Source: Dehalococcoidia bacterium (GTDB taxonomy: Bacteria; Chloroflexota; Dehalococcoidia; Dehalococcoidales; UBA1222). Taken from it: DNA of 64,000 nt. Under the pieces are notes generated by a model. That model was not told the origin of the DNA and made no database searches. It saw only the letters and a list, made by a program, of their open reading frames with translations. The stretch covers positions 59 to 64,058 of the forward strand of contig WREQ01000002.1 of the NCBI GenBank assembly GCA_009779255.1, written 5' to 3'. Below are positions 23,582-64,000 of this stretch, one piece after another. The translations under genes were made by a program, and so were the position numbers. Position 1 is the stretch's first letter; the number at the start of each line of letters is the position of its first letter.

Positions 23582-23589
23582 AGCACTCT

Positions 23590-27432: not shown

Positions 27433-27456
27433 CCGCTTCTCCTCCTTATTCCCGGC

Positions 27457-27642: not shown

Positions 27643-27653
27643 ATCTTCTCCAA

Positions 27654-28504: not shown

Positions 28505-28515
28505 CAGTCAACCAC

Positions 28516-28884: not shown

Positions 28885-28897
28885 GGTGCTAACCTCT

Positions 28898-29176: not shown

Positions 29177-29178
29177 AA

Positions 29179-29818: not shown

Positions 29819-29848
29819 CTGGTTCCCCTAAATCGTCTGTCGCGGACG

Positions 29849-31206: not shown

Positions 31207-31215
31207 GCTTCAATC

Positions 31216-32331: not shown

Positions 32332-32340
32332 GTTTTCTCC

Positions 32341-33886: not shown

Positions 33887-33895
33887 CTCTGTACC

Positions 33896-34216
33896 TTACT
33901 GCGATTTAATATCAATGCCCACGCCTGAAGGCAAATTCAAGCTGGTGAGGGCGTCAATCGTCTTTGAAGTTGTTTCCACAATATCTATAATCCGCTTGTG
34001 AGTACGGATTTCAAACTGTTCCTGTGAATCCTTGTCAATGAAGGACGAGCGAATCACACTGAAACGCTTGATACGAGTCGGCAGCGGCACCGGCCCGGTG
34101 ACAATAGCGCCCGTCTTTTCCAAAGCCTCTACGATCTGGCGCGCCGCCTGATCCAGGATACGGTGATCAAATCCTCTGAGCTTAATGCGAATTTTCTGCT
34201 TGGTATTAGTGGTCAT
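33896..34216 (-). CDS. rpsJ: 30S ribosomal protein S10
   Basis: 106 aa. ..[14 protein letters not shown]...... Confidence 0.97.
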
Positions 34217-34228
34217 GTTATCCCCTCA

Positions 34229-39758: not shown

Positions 39759-39759
39759 C

Positions 39760-42891: not shown

Positions 42892-44140
42892 AAGCATCGC
42901 CAAGGGGCTGCTGGACGCTCCCTCGTCCAAGAGCTACACCATCCGCGCCCTGATGTGCGCCGCGTTGGCTCCGGGCCACAGCTACATCCGGCGGGCGCTT
43001 TTCGCCGATGACACGCTGGCCGCCGCAGATGTACTGCAAAAGACCGGCATCGGCATCCTCAAAAACGAACACGGCTGGGGCATTGAAGGCGGCCTGCTCA
43101 AAACACCGTCCTCCGAATTGTTCTGCCGCGACAGCGCCGCCACACTGCGCTTCATGACCGCCATATCTGCCCTGATTCCCGGCACGGTGCGGCTGGTGCC
43201 AGGGGCGGGGCTGGCAAAACGTCCTGTGCTGCCGTTGCTGGACGCGCTGACGCAGCTGGGAGTGAACTGCCGGCTGGAAGACCAGACGATACTAGTGGAA
43301 GACAGCGAATTTCACGGTGGCCGGGTGGAGATGCCCGGCGACATCAGCTCGCAATTCATTTCAGCGCTGCTTATAGCCGGGGCGCGCTCGCAACAGGGAG
43401 TGCAAATCGCGCTCACCTCGCCGCCGGTTTCCAAACCCTATCTGAATATGACCATCGAATGCCTCAAAAAGTTCGGCATACACGCCGCCGCTTCTCCAAC
43501 TATGGAGGAGTTCAGAGTTGCCCGCCAAGACTTCCGCCCCGTCGAATACACCGTGGAGGGAGACTGGTCGCAAGCCTCCTACTTGCTGGCATTGGGAACG
43601 CTCTGCGGAGAGGTGATTGTAAGCAATCTGAACGCCGAGAGCCTGCAGGGTGACCGCGTAATCCTCACCTTGCTGACCCGCATGGGAGCGCGCCTATCGG
43701 TGCGACGCAGTTCAGTAATGGCACAAAGATCATTCCTGCACGGCATCAACGCCGACCTGTCGGACTGCATTGACCTGCTCCCCACCATGGCCGTCCTCGC
43801 CGCCTGCGCTGACGGCGAGAGCCGTTTTTCCGGTGTCAAAAACGCGCGTCTCAAGGAATCCAACCGAGTTGAGGCGGTCGCTGCCGAACTGCGGAAAACC
43901 GGCATCCGAGTGCGCGATGAAGACGATGTGCTGGTCATCTTCGGCGGTAGCCCACGCGGCGCCGTTATCGACAGTCACGATGATCACCGCATGGCGATGG
44001 CCTTCGGCGTGCTGGGAGCGGCCGCCGGCGATATGACGATTGAAGGCGCCGAATGTGTCGCCAAGACCTATCCCGATTTCTGGAAATCCCTGACCACGCT
44101 CGGCATAAAGGTGGAAAACGATGTCAAACAGTCTGGGTAA
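42872..44140 (+). CDS. aroA: 3-phosphoshikimate 1-carboxyvinyltransferase (EPSP synthase)
   Basis: 422 aa. ..PSSKSYTIRAL.. and ..RLKESNRVEAV... Confidence 0.95.
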   Translation: MKISISKSIAKGLLDAPSSKSYTIRALMCAALAPGHSYIRRALFADDTLAAADVLQKTGIGILKNEHGWGIEGGLLKTPSSELFCRDSAATLRFMTAISALIPGTVRLVPGAGLAKRPVLPLLDALTQLGVNCRLEDQTILVEDSEFHGGRVEMPGDISSQFISALLIAGARSQQGVQIALTSPPVSKPYLNMTIECLKKFGIHAAASPTMEEFRVARQDFRPVEYTVEGDWSQASYLLALGTLCGEVIVSNLNAESLQGDRVILTLLTRMGARLSVRRSSVMAQRSFLHGINADLSDCIDLLPTMAVLAACADGESRFSGVKNARLKESNRVEAVAAELRKTGIRVRDEDDVLVIFGGSPRGAVIDSHDDHRMAMAFGVLGAAAGDMTIEGAECVAKTYPDFWKSLTTLGIKVENDVKQSG

Positions 44141-45212
44141 GCTCTTTCGCGTCACCTCATTCGGCGAAAGCCACGGACGGCTGGTTGGCGCTGTCATCGA
44201 CGGCTGCCCCGCCGGACTTGAGCTATCGGAGGCCGATATTCAGCCTGACCTTGACCGGCGTCGGCCGGGCGGCGGCGCCGTCTCTACACCCCGCACCGAG
44301 GAAGACCAGGCCGACATTCTCTCCGGCGTCTTCAACGGCAAAACAACAGGGGCGCCCATCTGCATTACCATCCCCAACCGGAACGCACAGTCCGATGATT
44401 ATGCAGAACAGCGCTCAATTCCCCGCCCCAGCCACGCCGACTACACTTATTACGTCAAGTACGGCGGCCACGCCGATTACCGCGGCGGCGGGCGCGCCTC
44501 CGGACGCCTCACCGCGAGTATGGTGATGGCAGGCGCGATAGCCAGAAAATTGCTGACTGCCCAAGGGATAGAAATACTGGGACACGCCGTCGAGATTGGC
44601 GGAATCAAAACCTCCGCACGCGATTATGACACGATTCGACGCGATGCCCGGTTTAACGCCACTGGCTGTGCTGACCAGGACGCGGCGAAGCTGATGCTTC
44701 AGGCAATTGATAGGGCGCGCCGCGATGGCGACAGTCTGGGTGGTATTATCGAGGTGATCGCGCTGGGCGTGCCGGCCGGGCTGGGTGAGCCGCTTTTCGA
44801 CAGCGCAGAGAGCGCCATGGCACAAGCCTTCTTCTCCATTCCGGCGGTCAAGGGCGTGGAGTTCGGCGCTGGATTTGCCGCTGCCCGTCTCAAGGGTTCA
44901 GAAAATAACGATCCTTTCATCATAAGCGAAGGCAGGGTGCAAACCGACTCCAACCACGCCGGCGGCATACTGGGCGGCATTACAAGCGGCATGCCTATCA
45001 CAGCGCGTCTTGCAGTCAAGCCTACCCCTTCAATTGCCCTACCACAACGTAGCGTCAATCTGGAAAGCCTAAGCGCGGCGGAGATGTCCGTCAGAGGCCG
45101 CCATGACCCGTGCGTAGTGCCGCGCGCCATAGTGGTAGCCGAAGCCGCCATGGCGATAACATTGTGCGACCTGTCCATCATAGCAGGCACAATGGGGAGA
45201 GTGATGGCATGA
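44121..45212 (+). CDS. aroC: chorismate synthase
   Basis: 363 aa. ..FRVTSFGESHG..VGAVIDGCPAGL... Confidence 0.96.
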   Translation: MSNSLGKLFRVTSFGESHGRLVGAVIDGCPAGLELSEADIQPDLDRRRPGGGAVSTPRTEEDQADILSGVFNGKTTGAPICITIPNRNAQSDDYAEQRSIPRPSHADYTYYVKYGGHADYRGGGRASGRLTASMVMAGAIARKLLTAQGIEILGHAVEIGGIKTSARDYDTIRRDARFNATGCADQDAAKLMLQAIDRARRDGDSLGGIIEVIALGVPAGLGEPLFDSAESAMAQAFFSIPAVKGVEFGAGFAAARLKGSENNDPFIISEGRVQTDSNHAGGILGGITSGMPITARLAVKPTPSIALPQRSVNLESLSAAEMSVRGRHDPCVVPRAIVVAEAAMAITLCDLSIIAGTMGRVMA

Positions 45213-46438
45213 GCCTCGAGAATCTGCGCGGCGCCATCGACGACGTGGACGCCCGCATCGTCAAACTGCTGGCCGAGCGACTGCTGATTGCCGGCCAAAT
45301 CGGACTGGAAAAGCGCCTCGGCGGCATACCACTCAATGACGCCGCGCGCGAGGCCACCGTACTGGAACGCGTCCGCCGGCTGGCCGAAGCCGAGGGAGTG
45401 AGCGCCGCCGCTGTTGAAAACGTCTACCGCCACATCATCACCTCCTCCAAGAGCGTGCAGGATGTTTCCACCGCCTTACAGGGCGAAACAGGCACTCAAG
45501 TCGGTGCCGCATCATATGTTATTCCTGAAGGTGACTGGCGCATACCGGAGCGCCGGCTGGGACACAGCAGAACAACCAAGAGATTTGCCATCGTGGGTGG
45601 CGCCGGCAGGATGGGACGCTGGCTGGGCAAGCTGCTGCTGGCTGAGCAAATGGATGTCATCCTCATTGGGCGGGATGCCGGACGGTTATCCGTCGCCTCC
45701 AGCGAACTCAAAACCGTGGCTACCACCGACCTGCGCGCAGCGGGTAGCGCCGACGTGATTATTCTGTCGGTGCCGATAAACGGCTTCGCGTCACTAGTGG
45801 AAGAACTTGGCCAGTACGTAAAACCCGGCCAGACGGTAATCGACCTGACCTCGGTCAAGGTGATGCCAGTGGACATGATGCACAAACACTTGCCGAACTG
45901 TCTGACGCTGGGGGCGCACCCTGTATTCGGCCCCGGGGCGGAAAGCCTATCCGGCCACAACGTCATTCTCACGCCTACGAACGACCCTGAGCAGGCGCTG
46001 GCACAATGGGCGCAAACATGGCTGGAAACACACGGAGCGCGCGTGCGGCTGATGTCCCCCACCGAGCATGACCGGCTGATGTCGGTGGTTCTGGGATTGG
46101 CACACTTCATCGCCATCGTATCCGGCGACGTGATTCTGAACCAGGAGGACCACGCCGGTCTTGAAATGGCCTCCGGCGTCACCTTCCGGGCGCTTCGTGC
46201 GCTGGTTGCCAGCGTTCTGGGAGAAGACCCTGAGCTATACGCCGCTATACAGACCAATCTGCCGGATCTGCCGGTGCTGGAACGCAGCTTCATCGAAAAA
46301 GCCGCAGAATGGGCAGACCTAGTCGCGGCGGGCAACGCCATAGAGTTCGCCCGCCGTATGCGGGCGCTTGATGACCGGCTGGAGCGTGGCGAGTCTAGAG
46401 CCGCCTACAATGCCCTATACCGCATCACAGAGAAATAA
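45209..46438 (+). CDS. tyrA: bifunctional chorismate mutase (AroQ-type) / prephenate dehydrogenase
   Basis: ATG 45209 overlaps the aroC stop (ATGA). N-terminal ..LRGAIDDVDARIVKLLAERL.. is the CM part. The Rossmann motif ..IVGGAGRMGRWLG.. starts the PDH part. Confidence 0.88.
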   Translation: MSLENLRGAIDDVDARIVKLLAERLLIAGQIGLEKRLGGIPLNDAAREATVLERVRRLAEAEGVSAAAVENVYRHIITSSKSVQDVSTALQGETGTQVGAASYVIPEGDWRIPERRLGHSRTTKRFAIVGGAGRMGRWLGKLLLAEQMDVILIGRDAGRLSVASSELKTVATTDLRAAGSADVIILSVPINGFASLVEELGQYVKPGQTVIDLTSVKVMPVDMMHKHLPNCLTLGAHPVFGPGAESLSGHNVILTPTNDPEQALAQWAQTWLETHGARVRLMSPTEHDRLMSVVLGLAHFIAIVSGDVILNQEDHAGLEMASGVTFRALRALVASVLGEDPELYAAIQTNLPDLPVLERSFIEKAAEWADLVAAGNAIEFARRMRALDDRLERGESRAAYNALYRITEK

Positions 46439-48585: not shown

Positions 48586-49632
48586 CTACCCATTTTTGAT
48601 GTACCTCGTGTTTCGCGCCGTGCCGACTTTTTTGATGACGCCCTCTCTGACCATAGAGCCAAGCACCGCCTCTATTGTTGTCGGGCTTACATCTGGCAGG
48701 ACATACGCCAGTTCCGCTTTCGAAACTGGAAGCAGATTGTTCAGCACGGCCGCCTCCACCCGCCGCATCTTTGTAACGCGCACACCTTGCACCACGGCAA
48801 AACGCTTGTCCAGTTCCTTGTAACACACCAGCAGCGCTTGCAGAAAGTTTTCGATGAACTGGAAATAGCTGTTCCGGTTCTCATGCCATCCGTCAGAGGA
48901 CAAGCGCAGCGCTTCATAATACATCGTCTTGGTATGGTTTATCTGTTCCTCGAAGGAGATATACCTCCCCACGTAAAACCCATTCTTGTACAGCAGGAGC
49001 AGAGAGAGCAGCCGTGACATCCTGCCGTTTCCATCCAAAAACGGGTGTATACAGAGGAAATCGAGAACAAAGCATGGTATGAGTAAAAGGCTGTTGACAC
49101 CAGCGCTGCGGCGCGCGTCCATGAAGGCCAGGAGCAACTGCTCCATCGTATCCGCCGTTTCGCTGGCCGGGGTGGGAGCAAAACGGACTTTTCGCCTGCC
49201 GGAGGCGTCCGTCTCCATGATGACGTTATCGGACTGCTTGTAGGTACCGCCGCCTGCCGAAGTATACGAAAGCATGGCGCGGTGAAGCCCCAGAATGTCA
49301 GCTTCACGCATGTCAAGCGCCTTGTAGCCATTATGGACTGCGGCGAGAGCGTCGCGGTATCCCGCTATTTCCATTTCATCATGGTTCAACGGCGCGCTGT
49401 TTTGATTGACAATCTCGGCAATACGTTTCTCACTGGTAACAATGCCTTCGATTTCATTTGACCCTTTGACGGACTGCACCCGCGCAATGCCTTCCAGACT
49501 CGTAAAGATGCCGGGATATGAATCCTTGCGGGCAATATCCAGCGCTTTGAGTTCACTGATGGCACCAGTGATGTTAAGAAGTTTAGCTGGGAGTAGACCG
49601 TTTTCCAAAAATGAGTAGTCAAAACGCTTCAT
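48586..49632 (-). CDS. Fic-family protein (putative AMP-transferase) with an N-terminal inhibitory-helix motif and a C-terminal winged-helix-like region
   Basis: 348 aa. Canonical Fic motif HPFLDGNGRMSR. Upstream SNEIEG fits the (S/T)xxxE(G/N) auto-inhibition motif. Confidence 0.9.
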   Translation of the reverse strand: MKRFDYSFLENGLLPAKLLNITGAISELKALDIARKDSYPGIFTSLEGIARVQSVKGSNEIEGIVTSEKRIAEIVNQNSAPLNHDEMEIAGYRDALAAVHNGYKALDMREADILGLHRAMLSYTSAGGGTYKQSDNVIMETDASGRRKVRFAPTPASETADTMEQLLLAFMDARRSAGVNSLLLIPCFVLDFLCIHPFLDGNGRMSRLLSLLLLYKNGFYVGRYISFEEQINHTKTMYYEALRLSSDGWHENRNSYFQFIENFLQALLVCYKELDKRFAVVQGVRVTKMRRVEAAVLNNLLPVSKAELAYVLPDVSPTTIEAVLGSMVREGVIKKVGTARNTRYIKNG

Positions 49633-52113: not shown

Positions 52114-53763
52114 CTACCTCAGCTCCAGCTCTTTCTTCTTTTTATCAAAGATGAGCACGACGACAAGAATCTCCAGGATGAAGATAGTCGCGTTCACAAT
52201 GGTCCAAATGTCCACCAGCCGCACAGGCATGCTCATGTCCTCGGTCAGGAAGAAGACGATGACGCCGATAACAGCCAGGATGCCGACAACGAACAGCCAG
52301 AGGTACTTCACTGTGCGGACTTCCTGGTGGCCTTCTTTATCTTTGACACCATTCCACAAGAAGGCTCTGATCAACACCAGAACGGCCAGCAGCACCCCCA
52401 GGAGACAGAGGATGAGGTTGACGAGCGCCCATGGGTCGCCGTCTGAAGGCGGCGGCGGCGGATCACCACCCGTCGTCTGCGTCCAGTTGGCCCTTACGGT
52501 GACGTCGTTTGCCGGCATGGTGAAGGTGGTGGTGGCGCTGCTTGAGTTAGCCAGCGTAACGCCGCCCGAAACAACCGTCCAGCCAATGAAGGTATATCCG
52601 TCTCTGGCGCCGGCGTGGATGGTTACGACATTGCCGGGGGTGTAAGTGCCAGCGCCGGTGGTAGAAGCATAGCTGTCGTTGACGTAGACGGTATAGGCAG
52701 GAGGAGGCGGCGGGGAAGTCGTCTGTGTCCAATTGGCTCTTACGGTGACGTCGTTTGCCGGCATGGTGAAGGTGGTGGTGGCGCTGCTTGAGTTAGCCAG
52801 CGTAACGCCGCCCGAAACGACTGTCCAGCCCGCAAAGGTATATCCGTCTCTGGCGCCGGCATTGATGGTTACAACACTGCCAGGGGTGTAAGTGCCAGCG
52901 CCGGTGGTAGAGGCATAGCTGTCATTGACGTAGACGGTATAGGCAGGAGGAGGCGGCGGAGAAGTCGTCTGTATCCAATTGGCTCTTACGGTGACATCGT
53001 TTGCCGGCATGGTAAAGGTGGTGATACCGCTGTTTGGAGTAAACAGGGTCACGCCGCCGGAAACGACCGTCCATCCGGTGAAGGTATATCCGTCTCTGGC
53101 GCCGGCATGGATGGTTACGACCTCACCTTGGGCATAAGTCCCAGCGCCCGTGGGAGAAGCATAGCTGTCGTTGACGTAGACTCTATAGGCGGGCGGCTGC
53201 GGGGTGGCGGTAGTGGGAGGGGCGATATAAGAATGATTATAGCTTATACCATCGACCTTATCGCCAGCCTGGTTGCGGATAACCACTGTTGTTATGTCAT
53301 GCTCACTGCCGGCACGGACTTCAATGGTATACACCGCGTCGTCATAGGAATAACCAGGGAGACCGTGGGACGTAATATGGGTAAGGTCATAAGTATAGGT
53401 ACCGGTAGCCGCCACGCTGAAATCCAGAATGAGAGGCTGGTTCACCGTACCCGCCAGGGTAAAGATATAACTACCAGAATCAATGTAGCCACCGCTGATG
53501 TTGCTTGGCAAGGGATGGAAAGGCGTCCTTGGGGTAAGCTTATAGGTAAAACCAGCATTCGGAGCTGCTGCCGTATCGCCGGTAAAGTGCTGTTCAACGC
53601 TCTGGGTAACCACGCCCGGGGCCGCCATCACTGCAGGCGGGGTACCCAGGATATTCCCAAGCAGACAAACGGCTAAAATGACAGGGAGGGCAACCCCACC
53701 GACTTTGCCTATTTTAGCCTGGAGTATTCTTTTTATACCGGAAAGCATGGTGGTCATATTCAT
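52114..53763 (-). CDS. membrane-anchored pilin-domain / Listeria-Bacteroides-repeat surface protein (candidate basal pilus subunit)
   Basis: 549 aa. Signal peptide, then an FctA/Spy0128-like pilin-type segment (GFTYKLTP.., GTYTYDLTH...YSYDDAVYTIEVR). Three 82-aa repeats (..GYTF.GWTVVSGGVTL...FTMPANDVTVRANW) with PPPPP linkers. Three C-terminal TM helices and a KKKK tail. No sorting motif. Confidence 0.8.
   Translation of the reverse strand: MNMTTMLSGIKRILQAKIGKVGGVALPVILAVCLLGNILGTPPAVMAAPGVVTQSVEQHFTGDTAAAPNAGFTYKLTPRTPFHPLPSNISGGYIDSGSYIFTLAGTVNQPLILDFSVAATGTYTYDLTHITSHGLPGYSYDDAVYTIEVRAGSEHDITTVVIRNQAGDKVDGISYNHSYIAPPTTATPQPPAYRVYVNDSYASPTGAGTYAQGEVVTIHAGARDGYTFTGWTVVSGGVTLFTPNSGITTFTMPANDVTVRANWIQTTSPPPPPAYTVYVNDSYASTTGAGTYTPGSVVTINAGARDGYTFAGWTVVSGGVTLANSSSATTTFTMPANDVTVRANWTQTTSPPPPPAYTVYVNDSYASTTGAGTYTPGNVVTIHAGARDGYTFIGWTVVSGGVTLANSSSATTTFTMPANDVTVRANWTQTTGGDPPPPPSDGDPWALVNLILCLLGVLLAVLVLIRAFLWNGVKDKEGHQEVRTVKYLWLFVVGILAVIGVIVFFLTEDMSMPVRLVDIWTIVNATIFILEILVVVLIFDKKKKELELR
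52465..53196 (-). repeat. three tandem ~246-bp coding repeats
   Basis: Repeat starts PAYRVYVND / PAYTVYVND / PAYTVYVND at residues 191, 273 and 355. Copies 2 and 3 are almost identical at the DNA level by eye. Confidence 0.9.
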
Positions 53764-53764: not shown

Positions 53765-54709
53765 CTACCCCTCGTATTGCAAATTGCGGTGGTTACGGCG
53801 ACGTTTGTTCCGCATGATTAAGAACAGAATCAGTACCAGGAAGAGAACCAGCAGGATTACGATGATAATCTTGCCCCACAGTGGGATACTCTCCCACAGG
53901 CCAGGAAGACCATCAACCGCCTTGGACTCTCCAATAAGTTTGTTCGTTTCCGACTCGTTAAAAGTTTCATAGGTAATCCTCCCGATAAGGATATCCCGTC
54001 CGCTGGTGGAGGAGCTGGAACAGGTGGCGAGGAGGATAATCCGATCCGAGGTGTCAACCCCGATATCGCGGGAATGGATGGCCATTTCCCCAATGCGATC
54101 AAGATATGCCTGTTGGGCTGGCTGCCCCGTGACGCGGGGATGGAAAATCTGGTAATCATAAGCACTGGTGTGGATAAAAGCGAAGAACTCCAGCCCGTAT
54201 TCTTTGCCATCATAATACAACATACCGTAAGGACGGGCTTCAAAATATTTCTGGTCGGCGAAGTTCCCAATCTCCCCGAACATGACCTGTTTTTCCATGT
54301 GGTGCCCGTAAATGATAGAGTTGAAATCGGAAAAATTCCGACTGCTACTGGCATCAATGAATATGGCGCCGGACAGGGAATATTTCCCTTCGGCGTTGGT
54401 ATTGACATACTTGAGGTTGTTTCTCCCCTGAACTACGGGATAGTCGATATTGGTGCCGTAGACCGTAAGCCAGGCGCAGACATCAGTGTTAATTGCCTGG
54501 AGTCTGGTAAAGGCCTCCCCGGCGTTCTCAGCTGTGGGTTTATATATCTCATAGCGGGCGGCGCTGGCAGCACCTGTGACTTGGTTGGAATCCCACATGG
54601 CGTAGCAGCCGATAGTAATAAGTAGCATCAAAGACATCAGAACGACGGTGTCTAAAACACCATGCGCCGCCTTGATGGCCCTCTTTCCTATCTTAACTGC
54701 TACGCTCAT
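53765..54709 (-). CDS. sortase, class B-like, with an extra C-terminal TM helix
   Basis: 314 aa. N-terminal anchor. ..NTDVCAWLTVYGTNIDYPVVQG.., His motif IYGHHM, Cys motif LLATC, Arg in SGRDILIG. C-terminal IIIVILLVLFLVLILFLI plus RNKRRR. Confidence 0.88.
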   Translation of the reverse strand: MSVAVKIGKRAIKAAHGVLDTVVLMSLMLLITIGCYAMWDSNQVTGAASAARYEIYKPTAENAGEAFTRLQAINTDVCAWLTVYGTNIDYPVVQGRNNLKYVNTNAEGKYSLSGAIFIDASSSRNFSDFNSIIYGHHMEKQVMFGEIGNFADQKYFEARPYGMLYYDGKEYGLEFFAFIHTSAYDYQIFHPRVTGQPAQQAYLDRIGEMAIHSRDIGVDTSDRIILLATCSSSSTSGRDILIGRITYETFNESETNKLIGESKAVDGLPGLWESIPLWGKIIIVILLVLFLVLILFLIMRNKRRRNHRNLQYEG

Positions 54710-54751: not shown

Positions 54752-56173
54752 TTAGGAGATAACCGGTTCCTCTTGGTTGTCTTTCCTTTTGCGGGACTTG
54801 ATGGCCACGAAGAGTACGAGGCCGCCGACAGCCAGAACAATGAGGCCTACGAAGGCCAGGGTGTTCAGGTTGAGGCCGGTGGGCGGATCTTCGCTGTAGG
54901 TGTTGGTGAACAGGGCATAAGAATCACCCTGCTCAATGTCGCCTACATACAGGTTGGGGATGGGGGTGGCGTCAGCGGTGGGATCGTTGACGTTCAGGTA
55001 GACAACAGGGATGCCGAGGGGAGAGGCAACAGTGCTGCTCCAGCCGCCCTTAGCGTTGCCGTAGGCTTCGCCGTTAAGGTAAACAACGGCAAATGGGTAG
55101 TACTTGACAGCTCCGGCTTCGGCGACGGCGTAGGTGGCACTAGCCTCCAGGCCGGAGAAGAAGACCAGGCGCTGGCCGTCTTCCAGTGTGATACCGGTCT
55201 TCGCTACACCAGAGATGAATTCAATGTAGAGACCGTAGGCGCTAGTACCGGCAGAGTCGTTGACGTTGGTGACGTTAAGCCACGTACCAGGGTTGAGGAT
55301 GTCTTCCTGCATGACGGCAGCCCAGTACACTGAGGTGTTGTCAACGGTAGCAGGCTGGGTGACGGTCACGGTGAAATCAAAAGAGGTTACGGTACCGCCG
55401 ACGATATCCTTTTGAATGTACAGGAAGCCTTTGCCGTCGGTGGGGGTAGTGGTGTCGAATATGCGGTCGATGGTGTTGGTGAAAGCCAGGCCGTAGGCGC
55501 CTCCGCTGGTATCTACCTTGCCCAGGGTATCGGTAAAGTCATCGCCGAAGTCATCAACAGCCTTGAAGCCATAGACGCCGAAGATATAGAGGTCACCGAC
55601 TTGATGGTCAGGGCAACCAGCAGTATTGCATTCCTCAATGACGACGTAGAGGTAATACACGGCCTCGGAATAGTGCAGGTAGTCCTCGTAGTCAACACCG
55701 TCGGCTGTTACGTCGTCGCCAAGGAAGGCAGGGTTGGTGGCAGGCACGGTTTCCACAATCTCGTAGATGTAAATACCGGCAAGGCTCCAGGTAACGGCGT
55801 CTAAATCAATCTTTTCTTCCGCGTAGTAGTTGTCGTAGCCGTTAGGAACGGCAATGTCAGCTGCAGTCTCGTTGCCGTCAAAGGAGATGATGACGGTGTT
55901 GGCGCCACTAGTGACAAAGGTAAGCCCGGGCATGGTACTAGCGACGGTCTTATCGCCATTAAAGGAATACGGGGTGATGGTGAATTCAAAGTCGAGAGCG
56001 CCCGAATAGTTCGTAAATACAATACCGGAGGGGACCTTCAGCACTTTGGTAACGTAGGCTTCGGTGATAGCGTCTGGATCCACGGGGTCGGCCATAACAG
56101 ACACCGGCAGTGTTGTAAGACACAGCGCCAGCGTCATCAGGGAGGCCAAGGCTAGTTTGAGTTTCTTGGTCAT
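54752..56173 (-). CDS. two-domain pilin-like sortase substrate (candidate backbone pilin), sorting signal DPPTG
   Basis: 473 aa. Signal peptide ..LPVSVMA/DP. ..IYIYEIVETVP...YSEAVYYLYVVIEE... Two domain-terminal FTNT motifs. C-terminus EDPPTG, hydrophobic helix, KSRKRK. Confidence 0.85.
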   Translation of the reverse strand: MTKKLKLALASLMTLALCLTTLPVSVMADPVDPDAITEAYVTKVLKVPSGIVFTNYSGALDFEFTITPYSFNGDKTVASTMPGLTFVTSGANTVIISFDGNETAADIAVPNGYDNYYAEEKIDLDAVTWSLAGIYIYEIVETVPATNPAFLGDDVTADGVDYEDYLHYSEAVYYLYVVIEECNTAGCPDHQVGDLYIFGVYGFKAVDDFGDDFTDTLGKVDTSGGAYGLAFTNTIDRIFDTTTPTDGKGFLYIQKDIVGGTVTSFDFTVTVTQPATVDNTSVYWAAVMQEDILNPGTWLNVTNVNDSAGTSAYGLYIEFISGVAKTGITLEDGQRLVFFSGLEASATYAVAEAGAVKYYPFAVVYLNGEAYGNAKGGWSSTVASPLGIPVVYLNVNDPTADATPIPNLYVGDIEQGDSYALFTNTYSEDPPTGLNLNTLAFVGLIVLAVGGLVLFVAIKSRKRKDNQEEPVIS

Positions 56174-56279: not shown

Positions 56280-57047
56280 CTAGAGTCCTCTCCAGCGCAA
56301 GATAGTAATAACCGAACCCTTGGTGTCCTTGACGTTCACGGCTCCGTAGATACGGCTGTCGGTAGCGCTGGCTCGGGCATCACCCAAAACGAAGACCTCA
56401 TCTGCCTTTAACAGCATGGGAAAGCTGACGTCGCTCATGTACCGCTCGGTCTTCTCATAAATATCCGGCTCCTGCACCAAGGCGCTGTTCACCAGTAGGC
56501 CGTGGGTGTTGATATCAACAGTATCCCCTGCCACAGCCACCACCCTGCGAACCTGGGTCTGCCCCTCAAAGGTCAGGAGGAGAAGGTCGCCGGGTTCGTA
56601 GGACTTGTCCCAACGGTAATACATCACCAGGTCCCCGTCCTTCATCGCCGGAACCATCCCGGGTTCGCTGTTGTAGTGAATGCCATAGACAAAAGTGAAA
56701 GCCGCCACGGCCACGGCCACAATGATGCCGATTTTTGCTCCCAACCCCCCCAGCTCCCGCAGGAAAGAGTAGGAAGAAGAGCGGCGGGCAGGCGCCTTAG
56801 GGCGCGGCGGGACAGGGGTTGCGCCGCTACCCTCACTGCAAGTGGAAGTCGCGCTGCCAACCCCAGCAGGCCTTTTGCCCAACTCTACCTGGGAGGCAGA
56901 CGACACCTTTCCCTCACTGTGGCCGGAGGATATCACGGCATCGCTCCTGCCGGGTGGCGGCAAGATGACGGTATCCTCCCCCGAGGTGGGGGCAGGCAAA
57001 CCAGACGGGTTATTGTTTGAATCCATCTTGTCTTCAAGTCTCTCCAT
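56280..57047 (-). CDS. signal peptidase I (S26) homologue lacking the Ser/Lys dyad (SipA/LepA-like pilus accessory protein)
   Basis: 255 aa. Pro/Ser/Gly-rich N-terminal region, one TM. GMVPAMKDGD aligns to SMxPTLxxGD (Ser to Gly130). VRRVVAVAGD aligns to xKRxxGxPGD (Lys to Arg167). GDARASATDSR box retained. Confidence 0.8.
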   Translation of the reverse strand: MERLEDKMDSNNNPSGLPAPTSGEDTVILPPPGRSDAVISSGHSEGKVSSASQVELGKRPAGVGSATSTCSEGSGATPVPPRPKAPARRSSSYSFLRELGGLGAKIGIIVAVAVAAFTFVYGIHYNSEPGMVPAMKDGDLVMYYRWDKSYEPGDLLLLTFEGQTQVRRVVAVAGDTVDINTHGLLVNSALVQEPDIYEKTERYMSDVSFPMLLKADEVFVLGDARASATDSRIYGAVNVKDTKGSVITILRWRGL

Positions 57048-57050: not shown

Positions 57051-60000
57051 TTAGGCTGCCTGATCGGCGCGGCGACGTGACTTCCATGTGGTAAATGACG
57101 CCACAGCACCTAAGGCCAGAGCGATGAGACCAAGGAAGTGTTGTCCTCCCAGAGAAAGACCAGTGGGCGGAACAACGGCGTCCCAATGATTAGTGAATGC
57201 GAACTCGCGGTCAATCGTTATGGCATGAAGCTCGGTATCATTGCCTACCGTGACAGAGGTGCCTTCGCTGTCGGTAAAAGAGACCATGTAGGGGATAGGC
57301 ATCGGGTTGCCATTGGCATCCACACCAAGGAAATCCACTGTCTCGACGACTCTGATAAAGCCTACCAGCGGGACGCCCGCTATCACGATGTGCTGGCCGT
57401 GCTTGAGGTAGAATGTCGCAGCGCCGTTAGCATCCAGCCTCAACGTGCCGGTTTTGTCCACAGTTGTGCCGGTGTAGATGACGTAGCCAAACTCCGTGCC
57501 CACCGCAAACGGCGTGGGCAGGATGGGATTGGGCGTCGCACTCGGGTCGCCCTGGTCGCTGAAGAAGTACACCGTAAACTCCCAGTCCATGGTCGGGTTG
57601 CCCATCTTGCCTGTCACTGTCTTGCTCACCGTCAATGTCGTGCCGGAATTTATGTAGTTAATCTGGTCGTTGGTCAGTAGCGCGCCGTCGAATTGGCTGT
57701 TGATGCGGGTGATGGCGCTGAGGAGCGCATAGTTGACCGGCGGCGTATAACTTTGTCCCGCCGTGTTCCCGATTACCATCGCCGTACCGCCGCTCACGAC
57801 AATACCGTCTGCGATTCTGATGTTGCCGTAGGCAATGCTCGGGAACTTAAGTGGGTTGTTGTACGCGTTATGTGTGACGCCGCCGTCATTGCTGTCGCGC
57901 CATTCCGTGTAGATGCCGCCGCCGTCCTGCGTTGCCGTGTTGTCCGAGATGACGCCGCCGGTCATTTCGAGAACGCCGTCGATGGTCACATACACGCCGC
58001 CGCCATTGGCATTGGCCTTATTACCAGGAATCTTACCGCCGTTCATGGTAAATGAGCCATCGTTGTAAACGCCGCCGCCGTTGGTAGCTGTGTTGGCATC
58101 AGGGGCATTCTCACCGCCGATCGTGCCGCCGGTCATGGTAAAAGTTCCGGCACTATACACACCGCCGCCATTGTTGACTGCCGTATTACCAGAAACCTTA
58201 CCGCCTTCCATGGTAAATGTGCCGCCAACGGCTACATACACGCCGCCACCGTTGTTTGCTATGTTGCGGTTGATAACGCCATCACCAGGCTTCTCAAAGA
58301 CACCGCTGGCGCCTACGTATATGCCGCCGCCGTCGCTGGCAGCTCTATTATTAGAAACAGCACAGTTATCCCCCATTTCAAACGCGCCGTTATTATATAC
58401 GCCGCCGCCGAACGAAGCTTCGTTGTAGCTGATCTCGCCGTTGTAGTTCCTCATCTCAAAAATGCAGCCGCTCGCAATATACACGCCGCCGCCAAGTTCA
58501 GCCGTGTTCGCATGCCCGTTAACGCCAATGGCGCCACCGTACATCTCAAACCTGCTTGCGTTGGTAACATACACACCGCCGCCGTCATCAATTGCTGTAT
58601 TACCGGAAATCTCACCGTTAAACAAGGTGAAGAAAGACGCATCGGCTACATATACGCCACCACCCAGGGTCGCAGTGTTGCCTCTAATGACGGGAACGAT
58701 AGTATCGCTGGACATTTCGAATTCGCCGTTGATTGCGCACACGCCGCCGCCATACTCAGCCGTATTGCCACTGATCTCGCCGCCTTTGATAACAAGCCGC
58801 TTGCCTGCTGTGCTATTGCTGACGTAATACACGCCGCCACCGCCGCCAACTGCCGTGTTGTCGCTGATGGTGCCGGCTTCTATAACGAAGCTACCGCTAC
58901 TTCCGTCATAATACACGCCACCGCCATCCTGCGATGCCGTGTTGTCGGAGATAACGCCGCCTTTCAGGATGAAGCCGCTGGCAATGCTACTTCCGTCATA
59001 ATACACGCCGCCGCCGTTGGTAGCTGTGTTGCCGGAGATGGCACCGTCTTCCATGATGAAGCTGTTGACAGTGCTGCTTCCGTCATAATACACGCCGCCG
59101 CCGTTGGATGTTGCCGTATTGCCGGAGATCGTGCCGTCTTCCAGGGTGAACGTGCCGGCGTTGTAAACACCGCCGCCGTTGGATGTTGCCGTATTGCCGG
59201 AGATCTTGCCGTCTTCCATGGTAAAGGTGCCCCAGTTGTAAACGCCGCCGCCGCGGGCAGCTGTGTTGGCATCAGAGGCATTCTCGCCGCCGATCGTGCC
59301 GCCGGTCATGGTAAAAGTTCCGGCATTATACACGCCGCCGCCAACGCCATTGGTCGCATTACCAGAAATCTTACCGCCTTCCATGGTAAAGGGTCCCTCG
59401 TTGTAAACGCCGCCGCCGGCGGATGTTGCCGTATTGCCGGAGATGGTACCGTCTTCCATATTGAACGTGTCGACGTTGTAAACACCGCCGCCGATTGTTG
59501 CCGTATTGCCGGCGATCGTGCCGCCTTCCATGGTAAAGAGGCCCTCGTTGTAAACGCCGCCGCCGTTGGTAGCTGTGTTGGCATCAGAGGCATTATCACC
59601 GCCGATCGTGCCGCCGGTCATGGTGAACGTGCCACTGTTAAGCACACCGCCGCCAGATGCTGCCGTATTGCCGGAAATCGTGCCGTCTTCCATGGTAAAG
59701 GTGCCCTCGTTGAAAACACCACCGCCGCCGTCCTGCGTTGCAGTATTGCCGGAGATGGTGCCGTCTTTCATGGTGAAGGTGCCGCCGACATAGATATAAA
59801 CGCCGCCGCCGCCGAATGCTGCCGTATTGCCGGAAATCGTGCCGTCTTCCATGGTGAAGGTGCCGCCGACATAGATATAAACGCCGCCGCCATCGGTAGC
59901 TGTGTTGGCATCAGAGGCATTCTCGCCACCGATCGTGCCGCCGGTCATGGTGAAGGTACCCATCATGAAGCTACAAACGCCGCCGCCGATTGATGCCGCA

Positions 60001-63000
60001 TTGCCGGAGATGGTGCCGTCTTCCATGGTGAATGTACTGGCGTTGAAAACACCGCCGCCGTTGCCGCCACTGGATGTTGCCGTATTGCCGGAGATCGTGC
60101 CGTCTTTCATAGTAAAGGTGCCACTGTTAAGCACGCCACCGCCGCTGCCGAGTGTTGCCGTATTGCCGGAGATCGTGCCGTCTTCCATGGTGAACGTGCC
60201 GACGTTATATACACCGCCGCCGTTGTAGGTGACTTTGTTGCCGGAGATGACGCCGCCGGTCATGGTGATTGTGCCTGTGCCACTGTTGGCCACACCGCCG
60301 CCATTGCTGATTGCCGTATTACCAGAGATGGCGCCGCCTTTCATAGTGAAGGTGCCGCCGAAGTTGCTGATGTAAACGCCGCCGCCGGTGTCATTCTTAC
60401 AATTCGTTATCACAGCACCGTCTTCCATGGTGAAGGCGCCGCCGTTATTCACCGCCACACCGCCGCCAGTGACATCCGTGTCATCGCCGTCAAGGATGAT
60501 ATTGCTGATGGTTAGGCTGCCATTTACAGTGAGGTGCCGATTTGTACTGAGCTGCGTAATCGTCCACTGGTTACCAGTGTCCGACGTGAGGGTGATGTTT
60601 TTGCCCGCCGGTATGACCACCGCCGCGTTCTTATACGACGTAGCGATTGGCCCCTTCGGATCAGTTCCGGCAAAGTCAGACATATCGAGGTCATCTTCCA
60701 GCGCAACTATCGTCCACGGATTTCCCGTATTTGTCGGGTCGCAAGCCGCAACCGCGTCTGCCAGCCAGTAGTAGGTGCCAATGAGGGTGCCTGTAGCGGG
60801 GGTGCCGTCCCAGACTTGGTAGCGATCGGGGATCGGCGAGGTAACAATAAGGTCATCGCCGCTGACGCCTATGATATAGCCGGGTATTGCGGTCGCTGCA
60901 GAGGAATGCAACGTGAAATGCGACGCATTCGAGTTAATGGCACCATCGACGACCAGCACCGCCGTTGCAGGCGGGACCGGCCATGCGGACGTGGGTGTTG
61001 CGCCATAACCCAGGCGGACCTCAACAGGGATCGTCGGGGTGAACGTTGCTGGAGTAGACAAGCCGCCCGTGTTAACCAAGACCGTTCCCGTTATCGTCGG
61101 GGAACCGCTCAGGCTGACAAGCCCTCCGGCCACATTGTTGTAGACCGCATAACCTGTGGTGGCCGAGACAGAGCCGCCGTTGATGTTGATAGAACCGGTC
61201 ATTTGGTTGAATATCGCATAGCCTGTCGTGGCCGATACATTGCCGCCGCTGATGTTGACCATGCCAGTCGAGTGGTTGTTGATCGCCCTGCCGGTGGTGG
61301 CAGATACCGTTCCGCCGCTGATTGTGATGGTGCCAGCATTATCGTTGTAGATCGCTCTGCTGTTGGTGTTGTTTGCGTTGTTCTGTACTTTGCCGCCGGT
61401 GATCGTGAGGATATTATTGCCGGCTGTGCCGCCTGCAAGATATATCGTGCCCTGAGCAGCAGCCGGATTATCCGAAGTGACCTCTGTGGGGATCGTGGAG
61501 GTTGTTTCCGATATTGTTATCAGGCCTGTCGAGTTGTTGTATATCGCAACCCCGACCGTGGCCGAGACAGTGCCGCCGCTGACATTGATCGCGCCAGTCG
61601 AATTGTTGTAGACCGCCATGCCGCTTGTGGCCGAGACCCTTCCGCCACTGATGTTGACCGTGCCGGCACCATTGTTAAAGATCGCGTTGCCGCCGGCTGC
61701 GGTGTTCTCCACTATACCGCCGGTGATCGTGAGGACACCACCTACATGGCGTATCGTACCCTGAGCGCTGTTGGTATGCGCCGAAGTGATCCTTGTGGGG
61801 ATCGTGGAGGTTGTTTCCGATATCACGATCGTGCCAACCACCTGGTTGTTGATCGCAATGCCAGTGCCGGACGATACCGTTCCGCCGCTGATTGTGAGCG
61901 TCGCACTGGTAGATTGGTTGACGATCGCAGCGCCGGTGGTGGACGATACCGTTCCGCCGGTGATCGTGACCGGACCGCCTGACGATCCGGTGAGGATCGT
62001 AGTGCCGGTGCCGGACGACACTATTGCCGAACCGCTGATTGTGACCGCGCCTGCCCCGAAGTTGTAGATCGCCATGCCTGTGTCAGTGGCCGAGACCGTG
62101 CCGCCGGTGATGTTGACCGTGCCGGTCGATTGGTGCCAGATCGCCCTGCCGGTCGTCGCCGTGACAGCGCCGCCAGTGACGGTGACCGTACCTGTCCCGG
62201 CGGTGCCGATCGTCCCGTTGACGCCAGTCGATGAGACCACACCGCCGGTGACGGTGAGGTTACCGCTGTTGACCTGTACGGCACGCGCATTAGACTGTGT
62301 GTTGGAGTTGTTTATTGCGCCGGTGCTTGTGACGTTCACGCCGGAGCTGATGTTAATTACACCGGTGGCCACCGAGCCGGTGGTATTGGCCGTAATCGAG
62401 CCGCCCAGAGTTATGTTGCCCCAGTTCTCAGAGAGTGCTGTACTGTTCTCGAACGTTATATTCTGCGAACCTATGTTGAGCTGGCCTGTGCCGGTGTATG
62501 GTGTGGTGGCCGTGTTTAGTGCGTTCGCGAAGAATATGCTGCAAGCGTTACCTTCCGCATCCGCGCGTATCAGGTCTATCAGGTTCTGAACGTTGGTGTT
62601 GGTATAACCGGCGCCGCCTATCTGATAGTGTGAGCCGTCGTCCATGAATCCAATCGCCGCAAAGGCGGATGTGCTTACGTACACTATGTACTCATAGGTC
62701 TTATCGAGTGCCCTAAGGACAAGGTTATTCCCGACCTCAATTATCTCGAAACCTGCGCCGGACGGCTGGTGAAGCTGGAAGCTGTTCAGATAGCTTGTGC
62801 CGTTGACATTAGCTCCGTTCACCACAACGACGTCGCCGTGTGCGTAAGCGGCTAACTGGACCGTATACATCTTGCTTACGGGCGCAAACGGCGTGCCAGT
62901 TGTGAGAGCGGTCAGTCTGTTCTGGGTGACGTAGATCGTTCCCGTTATGGTCGGATTGCCGCCGAGATTCACTGCTCCTGCCGCCGCATTGCAATAGACC

Positions 63001-64000
63001 GCATAAACGTCGCCCGTGACCGTGCCGCCGGTGATGTTCACGATCCCGGAACTTGCGTTGTATATCGTGCGGGCGTTGGCATTGGCCGCAGTGTTCGATA
63101 CCGTGCCGCCGGATATGTTGATCGTTCCGCCTGCTACGTTGCGTATCGTACCCTGGGTGTTGTTAGTGTTCGCCGATGTCACGATCGTCGGGACGGTGCT
63201 CGACGCTTCGGATATCGTTATCACTCCGAGGGAGGAGTTCCAGATCGCCACGCCTGCGCCGCTCTGTACCGTGCCGCCGGATATATTGACCGCTCCGGTG
63301 GAGACATTCTCGAGCGCGTGGGCAGCACCGGTGTTCCGCACCGTGCCGCCGGATATGTCAATCGTTCCGTTGAATTGGTTCACGATTGCGGAGTACGGGC
63401 TGTTGGCTGATACCATGCCGCCGGATATCATTATCACTCCGCTGGAGTTGTTCCGGATCGCGACGCCGCCGTTGGCTGAGACCGTACCGCCGGTGATGTT
63501 CACAATCCCGGAACCTGCGTTGTATATCGTGCGGGCGTTGCCATTGGCCGAGGGATTCGATACCGTGCCGCCGGATATGTTGATCGTCCCGCCTACGACA
63601 TTGTGTATCGTGCCGCTGGTGGCGGATACGTTCGCCGATGTCACGAGCGTCGGGTTGGTGCTCGACGCTTCGGATATCGTTATCACTCCGGTGGAGTCGT
63701 TCCATATCGCCGCGCCTGTGTTGCTCCGGACCGTACCTCCGGATATGCTGACCGTGCCGGCCCCATTGTTAAAGATCGCGTTGCCTGTGCCGGTGTTCTC
63801 GATCAAGCCGCCGGTGATCGTAAGCCTCGGCCCCGTGGTCGCGCCTGAGGAGATGTCGATCACGTAACTTCCGGGGTTCCCTCTTATGATCGTCGGGTTC
63901 GACGTTTCCGATATCGTTACATGCCCCGTGCTTAAGCTGTATATCACCCTGCCCGAGCCTGTGTTCACTACCGTACCGCCGGATATGTCGATCGCTCCGG
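57051..64000 (-). CDS. giant beta-helix-repeat surface adhesin, sorting signal VPPTG (5'-truncated by the window edge)
   Basis: The frame is open to position 64000 (codons upstream of the listed GTG read ..GAIDISGGTVV..), giving more than 2,300 aa. Two repeat families: ISGGTVSxxxGxAIxN, and GGGVYxxGTFTMxxGxISGNTA. C-terminal CnaB/pilin-like domain (TVSKTVTG...AFTNHW), then VPPTG, TM, KSRRR. Confidence 0.9.
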   Translation of the reverse strand, partial: GAIDISGGTVVNTGSGRVIYSLSTGHVTISETSNPTIIRGNPGSYVIDISSGATTGPRLTITGGLIENTGTGNAIFNNGAGTVSISGGTVRSNTGAAIWNDSTGVITISEASSTNPTLVTSANVSATSGTIHNVVGGTINISGGTVSNPSANGNARTIYNAGSGIVNITGGTVSANGGVAIRNNSSGVIMISGGMVSANSPYSAIVNQFNGTIDISGGTVRNTGAAHALENVSTGAVNISGGTVQSGAGVAIWNSSLGVITISEASSTVPTIVTSANTNNTQGTIRNVAGGTINISGGTVSNTAANANARTIYNASSGIVNITGGTVTGDVYAVYCNAAAGAVNLGGNPTITGTIYVTQNRLTALTTGTPFAPVSKMYTVQLAAYAHGDVVVVNGANVNGTSYLNSFQLHQPSGAGFEIIEVGNNLVLRALDKTYEYIVYVSTSAFAAIGFMDDGSHYQIGGAGYTNTNVQNLIDLIRADAEGNACSIFFANALNTATTPYTGTGQLNIGSQNITFENSTALSENWGNITLGGSITANTTGSVATGVINISSGVNVTSTGAINNSNTQSNARAVQVNSGNLTVTGGVVSSTGVNGTIGTAGTGTVTVTGGAVTATTGRAIWHQSTGTVNITGGTVSATDTGMAIYNFGAGAVTISGSAIVSSGTGTTILTGSSGGPVTITGGTVSSTTGAAIVNQSTSATLTISGGTVSSGTGIAINNQVVGTIVISETTSTIPTRITSAHTNSAQGTIRHVGGVLTITGGIVENTAAGGNAIFNNGAGTVNISGGRVSATSGMAVYNNSTGAINVSGGTVSATVGVAIYNNSTGLITISETTSTIPTEVTSDNPAAAQGTIYLAGGTAGNNILTITGGKVQNNANNTNSRAIYNDNAGTITISGGTVSATTGRAINNHSTGMVNISGGNVSATTGYAIFNQMTGSININGGSVSATTGYAVYNNVAGGLVSLSGSPTITGTVLVNTGGLSTPATFTPTIPVEVRLGYGATPTSAWPVPPATAVLVVDGAINSNASHFTLHSSAATAIPGYIIGVSGDDLIVTSPIPDRYQVWDGTPATGTLIGTYYWLADAVAACDPTNTGNPWTIVALEDDLDMSDFAGTDPKGPIATSYKNAAVVIPAGKNITLTSDTGNQWTITQLSTNRHLTVNGSLTISNIILDGDDTDVTGGGVAVNNGGAFTMEDGAVITNCKNDTGGGVYISNFGGTFTMKGGAISGNTAISNGGGVANSGTGTITMTGGVISGNKVTYNGGGVYNVGTFTMEDGTISGNTATLGSGGGVLNSGTFTMKDGTISGNTATSSGGNGGGVFNASTFTMEDGTISGNAASIGGGVCSFMMGTFTMTGGTIGGENASDANTATDGGGVYIYVGGTFTMEDGTISGNTAAFGGGGVYIYVGGTFTMKDGTISGNTATQDGGGGVFNEGTFTMEDGTISGNTAASGGGVLNSGTFTMTGGTIGGDNASDANTATNGGGVYNEGLFTMEGGTIAGNTATIGGGVYNVDTFNMEDGTISGNTATSAGGGVYNEGPFTMEGGKISGNATNGVGGGVYNAGTFTMTGGTIGGENASDANTAARGGGVYNWGTFTMEDGKISGNTATSNGGGVYNAGTFTLEDGTISGNTATSNGGGVYYDGSSTVNSFIMEDGAISGNTATNGGGVYYDGSSIASGFILKGGVISDNTASQDGGGVYYDGSSGSFVIEAGTISDNTAVGGGGGVYYVSNSTAGKRLVIKGGEISGNTAEYGGGVCAINGEFEMSSDTIVPVIRGNTATLGGGVYVADASFFTLFNGEISGNTAIDDGGGVYVTNASRFEMYGGAIGVNGHANTAELGGGVYIASGCIFEMRNYNGEISYNEASFGGGVYNNGAFEMGDNCAVSNNRAASDGGGIYVGASGVFEKPGDGVINRNIANNGGGVYVAVGGTFTMEGGKVSGNTAVNNGGGVYSAGTFTMTGGTIGGENAPDANTATNGGGVYNDGSFTMNGGKIPGNKANANGGGVYVTIDGVLEMTGGVISDNTATQDGGGIYTEWRDSNDGGVTHNAYNNPLKFPSIAYGNIRIADGIVVSGGTAMVIGNTAGQSYTPPVNYALLSAITRINSQFDGALLTNDQINYINSGTTLTVSKTVTGKMGNPTMDWEFTVYFFSDQGDPSATPNPILPTPFAVGTEFGYVIYTGTTVDKTGTLRLDANGAATFYLKHGQHIVIAGVPLVGFIRVVETVDFLGVDANGNPMPIPYMVSFTDSEGTSVTVGNDTELHAITIDREFAFTNHWDAVVPPTGLSLGGQHFLGLIALALGAVASFTTWKSRRRADQAA
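57911..60480 (-). repeat. array of degenerate ~22-25-codon coding repeats (GGGVY..GTFTM.DG.ISGNTA)
   Basis: Dozens of recurrences are visible both in the translation and as recurring DNA strings (e.g. ggtgccgtcttccatggtgaa, acgccgccgcc). Boundaries are approximate. Confidence 0.85.

Follow-up and report, generated by a model that had tools for sequence, protein, structure and literature searches.

The characterised tip proteins of sortase-assembled pili (Cpa, RrgA, SpaC and PitA) comprise about 700-900 residues and contain Ig-like, vWA or thioester domains. The FCT pilus locus has the gene order cpa-sipA-fctA-srtC-fctB, pilus islet 2 has the order pitA-sipA-pitB-srtG1-srtG2, and VPPTG is the sorting motif of Cpa itself. 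We analysed a stretch of 64,000 nucleotides (nt) from an uncultured Dehalococcoidia bacterium (NCBI GenBank assembly GCA_009779255.1, contig WREQ01000002.1, positions 59 to 64,058 of the forward strand; hereafter the window), the end of which holds a five-gene operon with the same order as the FCT locus; its first four genes also match those of pilus islet 2. The first gene of this operon encodes a giant repeat protein that ends in a pilin-type domain and a sortase sorting signal, and an earlier note, made from the sequence alone, had placed it as a tip adhesin in the position of Cpa. We put the probability at roughly 0.65 that the giant protein is the tip subunit of a pilus of the streptococcal FCT/pilus islet 2 type assembled by a class B sortase.

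The genes of the operon, in their order, are as follows (lengths in amino acids, aa).

57051..64000, minus strand: 3' end (2,315 codons plus stop) of the giant gene of at least 18.8 kb, from the translation; the 5' end lies beyond the window
56280..57047, minus strand: SipA/LepA-like inactive signal-peptidase homologue, 255 aa, 3 nt past the stop of the giant gene
54752..56173, minus strand: putative backbone pilin, 473 aa, with signal peptide, C-terminal domain with a K/E/N triad, DPPTG sorting signal and anchor
53765..54709, minus strand: class B sortase, 314 aa (TIGR03064, 183.2 bits; cut-off 153.75)
52114..53763, minus strand: fifth surface protein, 549 aa, with a pilin-like N-domain (weak, streptococcal-type), three InlB B-repeats, a proline-rich stalk and a FILTED membrane domain

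The giant gene stands first and carries its own sorting signal, and the position of Cpa that had been claimed for it is borne out by the FCT/pilus islet 2 gene order, with the SipA-like protein, the pilin and the class B sortase encoded downstream. The gaps from the giant gene through the four downstream genes on the same strand are 3, 106, 42 and 1 nt; a scan of the operon for promoters and terminators gave results no better than those with shuffled sequences.

The best matches of the sortase in the PDB were 4Y4Q (SrtG1; 232 bits) and 3PSQ (Spy0129; 153 bits), both presumably pilus-polymerising sortases; other SrtB structures reached 90-106 bits, and those named NPQTN-specific about 91 bits. 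The 255-aa protein best matched S. pyogenes SipA (4N31, E 2e-17) and LepA (4K8W, E 3e-16), with E 7e-5 for a true signal peptidase I. It has Gly (in EPGMVPAM) and Arg (in VRRVVAVAGD) at the positions where SipA has Asp and Gly, which we take to be the positions of the catalytic Ser and Lys. Ahead of its membrane helix, this protein has an N-terminal extension rich in Ser, Pro and Gly (about 100 residues; 56745-57047, minus strand) that lies outside the 4N31 and 4K8W alignments. For the 473-aa pilin, DUF7601 was matched weakly (18.3 bits; cut-off 27), and a PDB sequence search gave no match. The fifth protein, in the position of FctB, has a signal peptide and PPPPP stalks, and its C-terminus is a FILTED domain with several membrane helices, not a sorting signal; it might be a membrane-anchored pilus base. 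The fifth gene of one related operon (L084, see below) shares this type of C-terminus.

Structures were predicted with AlphaFold2, using small custom alignments, for aa 300-1499 and aa 1500-2315 of the giant protein (numbered from the first residue encoded in the window), with a mean predicted local distance difference test (pLDDT) score of 76.9 and 82.6, respectively. The C-terminal part of the protein comprises three features.

57648..57881, minus strand: linker (aa 2040-2117), pLDDT below 50, with the conserved motif LLTNDQINY
57174..57647, minus strand: pilin-type beta-sandwich domain (aa 2118-2275), from DUF7601, Foldseek and the triad
57054..57173, minus strand: sortase sorting signal, i.e. 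VPPTG (aa 2276-2280), a hydrophobic helix and KSRRRADQAA, read from the sequence

The pilin-type domain was matched by Pfam DUF7601 with E 1e-12 (48.7 bits; cut-off 27), and Foldseek gave a probability of 1.0 for its similarity to Spy0128, PitB, Cpa and PitA, e.g. to the S. pyogenes major pilin Spy0128 (3B2M, E 7e-8; 5e-8 to 1e-7 across chains), PitB (4S3L) and Cpa (2XID, E 5e-6). A weak sequence match to Spy0125/Cpa (2XI9, phmmer E 0.007) aligned LTVSKTVTG with its LTLRKTVTG. The domain is bounded by TVSK, with K2126 (57621-57623), and AFTN, with N2270 (57189-57191); these two residues and E2219 (57342-57344) form a Lys/Glu/Asn triad that is invariant in an alignment of six sequences, the neighbouring 473-aa pilin included, and they correspond to the residues that make an intramolecular isopeptide bond in the relatives. 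The domain had previously been called CnaB/pilin-like. Its pilin-type nature and the conserved triad stand, but membership in Cna_B was rejected, since there was no match to Pfam Cna_B (PF05738) at E <=1 on the C-terminal segment and the CnaB2 structure 8BDW gave only a Foldseek E of 0.14; the fold is that of the Spy0128, PitB and Cpa domains.

VPPTG is followed by a hydrophobic stretch of 25 residues (LSLGGQHFLGLIALALGAVASFTTW), modelled by AlphaFold2 as a helix, and then by KSRRRADQAA, and this makes the sortase sorting signal complete. Only three relatives of the C-terminal 275 residues were found among 5.8 billion proteins. The linker motif LLTNDQINY (aa 2107-2115; 57654-57680, minus strand) stands just before the pilin domain and is common to the giant protein, the related tip protein P0094 (LLTNHQINY) and the fragment P0130 (LLDNDNINY).

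The reading frame of the giant gene on the minus strand runs from 63998 to the stop codon at 57051-57053; its 2,315 sense codons are free of stops and, as the earlier note had it, open to the window edge. The same gene is present on the ENA contig ERZ27257304:k141_4245263 (60,925 bp), found via an exact match of the neighbouring 255-aa protein, and is called there as a 6,268-residue product that begins no more than 2 nt from the end of the contig; the gene is hence 5'-incomplete on this contig, too. The previous estimate of about three times the size of Cpa was hence too low, with at least 6,268 aa instead of about 2,300. The readable part of the ENA contig (L081, 10 kb) prolongs the open frame beyond the window edge by 1,043 residues, comprising more family-1 coils and another junction module (see below), and the visible protein amounts to 3,358 residues (2,315 in the window and 1,043 in L081) out of at least 6,268. 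An upstream frameshift or assembly collapse, which the earlier note had named as a refuting condition, was not seen in these 1,043 residues, and the ENA frame is open over 18.8 kb. The extension towards the 5' end succeeded in part, in that the 1,043 residues were gained but the start was not reached; the true 5' end was also not found when Joint Genome Institute (JGI) metagenome contigs were scanned with the first 400 upstream residues and an exact 44-nt DNA pattern.

Across the 6.9 kb of the gene that is common to the window and the ENA contig, the two are base-identical save one in-frame 81-nt insertion/deletion (indel), and a Logan contig is an exact match to the 3' end of the giant gene. 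The ENA contig also carries the str operon with its EF-G gene (S12-S7-EF-G-S10-L3-L4), separated from the pilus genes by 20,725 nt; this distance equals the spacing in the window and ties the locus to core genes in two independent assemblies. The gene is real and spans at least 18.8 kb, and its product is a surface protein with the form of a rod and more than 6,200 residues. The part encoded in the window is composed of 17% Gly, 14% Thr, 9.5% Ser and 9% Asn. A homologue search with the whole protein gave no orthologue, and the best match (35% identity over 38% of the query) was repeat-driven. Three long open reading frames are found antisense to the giant gene (58512-59993, 60534-61982 and 63016-63867, plus strand; 493, 482 and 283 aa); they most likely arise as a side effect of the Gly/Thr-rich codons of the repeats and are not genes.

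Upstream of the linker, the part of the giant protein encoded in the window is made of the following elements.

62967..63998, minus strand: predicted beta-helix coils of family 1, block 1 (aa 1-344; 13 units of 23-33 aa), from motif parsing
62253..62966, minus strand: junction module 1 (aa 345-582), in which one beta-helix ends (LGGNPTITG...), a small domain follows and another beta-helix begins (YEYIVY..., one helix, ...WGNITLGG)
61122..62252, minus strand: predicted beta-helix coils of family 1, block 2 (aa 583-959; 15 units), from motif parsing; AlphaFold2 pLDDT 90-97, periodic short strands
60468..61121, minus strand: junction module 2 (aa 960-1177), leading into the family-2 helix and divergent from the other copies, from sequence comparison with modules 0 and 1
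57882..60467, minus strand: predicted parallel beta-helix of family 2, 32 units (aa 1178-2039), from motif parsing, TIGR03804, PF02415 and AlphaFold2 (three strands per unit)
59727..59891, minus strand: two adjacent 81-nt units within family 2 (aa 1370-1424; 89% identical, with 42 identical nt in common), of which the ENA assembly has only one

Two repeat families had been proposed, and both were recovered by motif parsing. Family 1, with the consensus ISGGTVSATTGxAIxNxSTG, comprises 28 units of 23-37 aa in the two blocks, and family 2, with the consensus GGGVYNxGTFTMxDGTISGNTA, comprises units of 24-32 aa; of the latter, 32 are counted in the window and 31 in the ENA assembly, and not about 40 as had been given. 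Both families were modelled as periodic units of three short strands; pLDDT exceeded 90 for most of family 1 and for the first half of family 2, and lay mostly at 80-98 in family 2 as a whole. TIGR03804, the NCBIfam parallel beta-helix repeat, scored 30.3 bits on family 2 (cut-off 19.45); PF13229 (Pfam Beta_helix) scored 20 bits and thus below its cut-off of 25.9. The top Foldseek ranks for the repeat parts were occupied by the beta-helix adhesins EtpA, IgA1 protease, Hbp, Fap2, Ag43 and rhombotarget A. Family 1 matched no Pfam family, and PDB sequence searches with both repeat regions gave no relative. The beta-helix reading of the repeats, which the earlier note had left for structure prediction to refute, is thus supported by the TIGR03804 score and the predicted three-strand coils, short of a significant structural match.

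The family-2 repeat had also been likened to that of the chlamydial Pmp proteins. This likeness is marginal: PF02415 (Chlam_PMP) reached 20.9 bits (cut-off 20.6) on the isolated family-2 segment only and had no match at E <=0.01 on the whole protein, and TIGR01376, with 11.9 bits, fell below its cut-off of 15. Membership in the Pmp family was rejected, since the C-terminus is a pilin domain with a sortase signal and there is no autotransporter beta-barrel.

The two non-repeat modules between the repeat blocks had been regarded as unique; they are paralogous to each other and to a third copy upstream of the window, in L081 (module 0). Module 1 is 34% identical to this third copy (E 1e-27 to 1e-32), and module 2 is more distant from both module 0 and module 1 (24-25% identity; E 1e-6 to 1e-11). 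Module 1 was modelled with a pLDDT of mostly 80-95, as mainly beta structure with one helix. Aligned homologues have in common a helix-end motif, LGGxPxITG..., and, following it, a helix-start unit, YxYIITGSG...IQxVIxxI...AxGxxCxIQFG...LxIG...WGxITLxGKITS. The module matched no Pfam family and no sequence in the PDB, and it is rare, with 69 cluster representatives among 1.84 billion proteins. Because the modules are paralogous junctions, their interpretation as unique binding domains was rejected, and instead of two repeat families plus two unique modules, the visible protein is a chain of predicted right-handed parallel beta-helix cassettes, with family-1 coils that the recurring junction module links and the 32 coils of family 2 after them.

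Two other very large proteins among these representatives, P0253 (5,314 aa) and P0254 (5,250 aa), have family-1 coils and the junction module in common with the giant protein, at 36% identity, with 8-9 matched stretches of the module and the consensus YIITGSG..IQ.VI..I...A.G..C.IQFG...LNIG...WG.ITLTGK. They differ from it in having other N- and C-terminal domains and neither a sortase signal nor a pilin domain; they are probably from other phyla, with other secretion or anchoring routes. The family-1 cassette appears to be a building block that has been shuffled in several lineages.

At the DNA level, the repeat units are less alike than the near-identity that had been ascribed to them: the family-2 units have a median pairwise identity of 60% (best pairs 89-92%), the longest exact direct repeat within the giant gene is 43 nt, and the arrays detected by Tandem Repeats Finder (TRF) in this gene have 66-90% matches. 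One TRF array, at 59647-59891 (period 81, 3.1 copies), covers the pair of adjacent 81-nt units that is single in the ENA assembly. Of the suggestion that the repeats are substrates for slippage or recombination, this much holds: the one-unit, in-frame 81-nt indel between the assemblies fits the type of event that is expected from slippage, i.e. the loss or gain of a repeat unit, and it may reflect either real heterogeneity or an assembler effect.

Three operons with the same gene order as that in the window were found, two of them from termite guts.

L083: tip protein P0094, 1,919 aa; Labiotermes labralis gut metagenome
L084: tip protein of 1,832 aa; ENA assembly ERZ27257346
L086: tip protein of 1,306 aa; metagenome-assembled genome (MAG) of Oscillospiraceae, higher-termite gut set WQRH-WRNX

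The tip proteins of all three operons are full-length, with a signal peptide, and with a DUF7601 domain and sorting signal at the end; they are 3-5 times shorter than the giant protein, with which they share 31-34% identity in the C-terminal part. The bodies of the L083 and L084 tip proteins are rich in Pmp-like GGG[VIL] motifs and contain almost no motif of the ISGGTV type; the L086 tip protein has only the C-terminal pilin region in common with the giant protein. The family-1 cassettes and the junction modules of the giant protein align with none of the three.

For the assembly of a pilus with the giant protein at its tip, the following steps are proposed. After Sec export, the class B sortase would cleave the sorting signal at VPPT|G, assisted by the SipA-like protein, and would attach the Thr of VPPT to a lysine in the 473-aa pilin; polymerisation of this pilin beneath the giant protein would follow, and the giant protein would cap the fibre. 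The beta-helix rod would act as a long-reach adhesin, whose ligand may be plant fibre or another cell in a gut, and the loss or gain of repeat units would alter its length. From about 90 coils in the 3,358 visible residues we infer a rod of about 43 nm, and for the whole protein a length above 80 nm is probable.

Several points weigh against this reading. The location at the tip and the acceptor Lys of the pilin are putative and drawn from homology only, as is the isopeptide bond of the pilin domain. Module 2 and the linker were modelled at a pLDDT below 50, and the Foldseek E-values for the beta-helix parts (0.02-0.1) are not significant. The N-terminus and signal peptide of the giant protein were not recovered in the scans of JGI contigs, and a thioester, vWA or enzymatic head domain is possible there; since no ligand-binding domain was identified in the visible protein, its role as an adhesin is something that we infer. 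To our knowledge, cultured Dehalococcoides have no peptidoglycan, which makes the anchoring of a sortase pilus in this class puzzling.

The giant protein might instead be a stand-alone, sortase-anchored surface fibre, attached to the envelope or to the fifth, membrane-held protein and never placed on a polymerised pilus. A sorting signal and a single sortase are compatible with such direct anchoring, no acceptor lysine or pilin motif is identifiable in the 473-aa pilin, and the fifth gene encodes a membrane domain in place of a sorting signal. However, the arrangement of the genes, with a SipA-like chaperone and a sortase nearest to 4Y4Q and 3PSQ, is that of the polymerising FCT and pilus islet 2 systems, and the pilin encoded nearby has the K/E/N domain as well and an xPPTG signal that is almost the same; we regard direct anchoring as rather unlikely. 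A mainly catalytic role of the beta-helix, e.g. as a surface polysaccharide lyase or hydrolase, was considered as well, since carbohydrate-active enzymes are common among right-handed beta-helices, the weak Foldseek matches included PL6 alginate lyases and a phage tailspike, and the termite-gut setting of two of the three related loci would suit fibre degradation. Against an enzyme stand the lack of any match to a lyase or hydrolase family in Pfam or NCBIfam on any segment, the high regularity of the coils, which are without the long insertion loops typical of active sites, and the adhesin passengers at the top of the fold matches, and such a role is very improbable.

That the long frame is in part an assembly artefact, with repeats collapsed, expanded or chimeric and the real gene shorter or interrupted, we hold to be highly improbable. 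It is true that an 81-nt unit with 42 identical nt at its flank sets the two assemblies apart, that all data come from metagenome assemblies of short reads, and that the 5' end is missing from both contigs; but most units are only about 60% identical, the longest exact repeat of 43 nt is too short to mislead an assembly at k=141, the shared 6.9 kb agree base for base save the indel, the distance of 20.7 kb to the str operon is equal in both, and the frame is open across 18.8 kb. A tip subunit of an FCT/pilus islet 2-type pilus is the reading that we prefer. A more far-reaching version of it would join all parts in one account: a sortase pilus derived from Clostridia, residing in a member of the Dehalococcoidia, held in the membrane, not the cell wall, by the FILTED fifth protein and bearing as its cap a modular beta-helix rod that would be the largest pilus subunit known so far (at least 6,300 residues, about 100 nm, with a length that varies as repeat units are gained and lost), for attachment in the termite gut. 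This combined account is doubtful.

The closest named sortases are 53-60% identical to that of the operon and belong to MAGs of Oscillospiraceae, Coriobacteriia and Clostridiales Family XIII, with no other Chloroflexota among the named top matches. Since these nearest named relatives are from outside the Chloroflexota, the sequence comparison suggests that the pilus locus was acquired horizontally. For EF-G, the best identity to GTDB species representatives (Dehalococcoidia) among the matches listed was 64%, and this divergence, among the same matches, suggests a deep-branching lineage of Dehalococcoidia as the host.

Other predicted features of the neighbourhood comprise part of a ribosomal protein superoperon (19329-36322, minus strand; rpoA, secY, S3 and EF-G), to which L088 adds S12, S7, S10, L3 and L4. 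An aromatic amino-acid operon (38679-46438, plus strand) encodes DAHP synthase, DHQ synthase, EPSP synthase and chorismate synthase as well as two fusions, i.e. shikimate dehydrogenase-shikimate kinase (506 aa) and chorismate mutase-prephenate dehydrogenase. Between the pilus operon and the aromatic operon, Fic-domain, DUF5661 and zf_Tbcl proteins are encoded (48586-49632, minus strand; 18591-20517 in L081), and a Fic gene also flanks the Oscillospiraceae locus L086. Further genes are predicted for a PmbA/TldD metallopeptidase pair (1207-3921, plus strand) and for a 525-aa protein with an AAA_33/zeta-toxin-like kinase domain (10613-12190, plus strand).

The system type and the fold classes are already known, and uncharacterised relatives of 1,300-1,900 aa exist; three features appear to be undescribed in the searchable literature, namely how large the protein is, that its family-1 cassettes are fused to a pilin anchor, and that its host belongs to the Dehalococcoidia. 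If the proposed role is correct, a beta-helix tip subunit of more than 6,200 residues would widen the range of designs known for Gram-positive-type pili almost tenfold, and it would unite in one protein two adhesin architectures that so far have been found in separate envelope types. The location of the locus beside a ribosomal operon and the kinship of its sortase with those of Oscillospiraceae point to a cross-phylum transfer of the whole pilus operon, and the Dehalococcoidia host raises the question of how the fibre is anchored in this lineage. The repeat families and the junction module, being without a solved relative, are clean targets for structure determination.

In comparison with S. 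pyogenes Cpa/Spy0125 (2XI9, 2XID, 4BUG), the giant protein is likewise encoded by the first gene of its operon, directly upstream of a SipA-like gene, and it has a homologous C-terminal 'bottom' domain (phmmer E 0.007, Foldseek E 5e-6) in which the Lys of TxxKTVTG and the Glu of VxE align. Unlike Cpa, it has a serial beta-helix body instead of Ig-like and thioester domains, and no thioester domain was matched in the 3,358 visible residues with Pfam and NCBIfam. Cpa comprises about 750 aa (length of the NF033396 model, 737), and the giant protein is at least 8 times longer. The Cpa equivalog NF033396 was matched with 23.8-32.4 bits (cut-off 600) and only at model positions 579-719, and membership was rejected for this partial, C-terminal match far below the cut-off.

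With pilus islet 2 of S. pneumoniae and S. oralis, the locus has in common the five-gene layout, a sortase whose best relative is 4Y4Q (232 bits) and a pilin domain with the fold of PitB (4S3L) and PitA (7W6B); it differs in that the body of the tip protein is unrelated and the fifth gene encodes a membrane-anchored surface protein, not a second sortase. As in the chlamydial Pmp proteins, a repeat of about 25 aa with the pattern GGG(V/I)...F..M....ISGN is predicted to form a parallel beta-helix, and the beta-helix adhesin passengers EtpA, Hbp, Ag43 and Fap2 led the Foldseek ranking of the repeat parts, at E-values that are not significant. Unlike Pmp and these other adhesin passengers, the giant protein has neither an autotransporter nor a TpsB-dependent secretion domain and is predicted to be anchored by a sortase.

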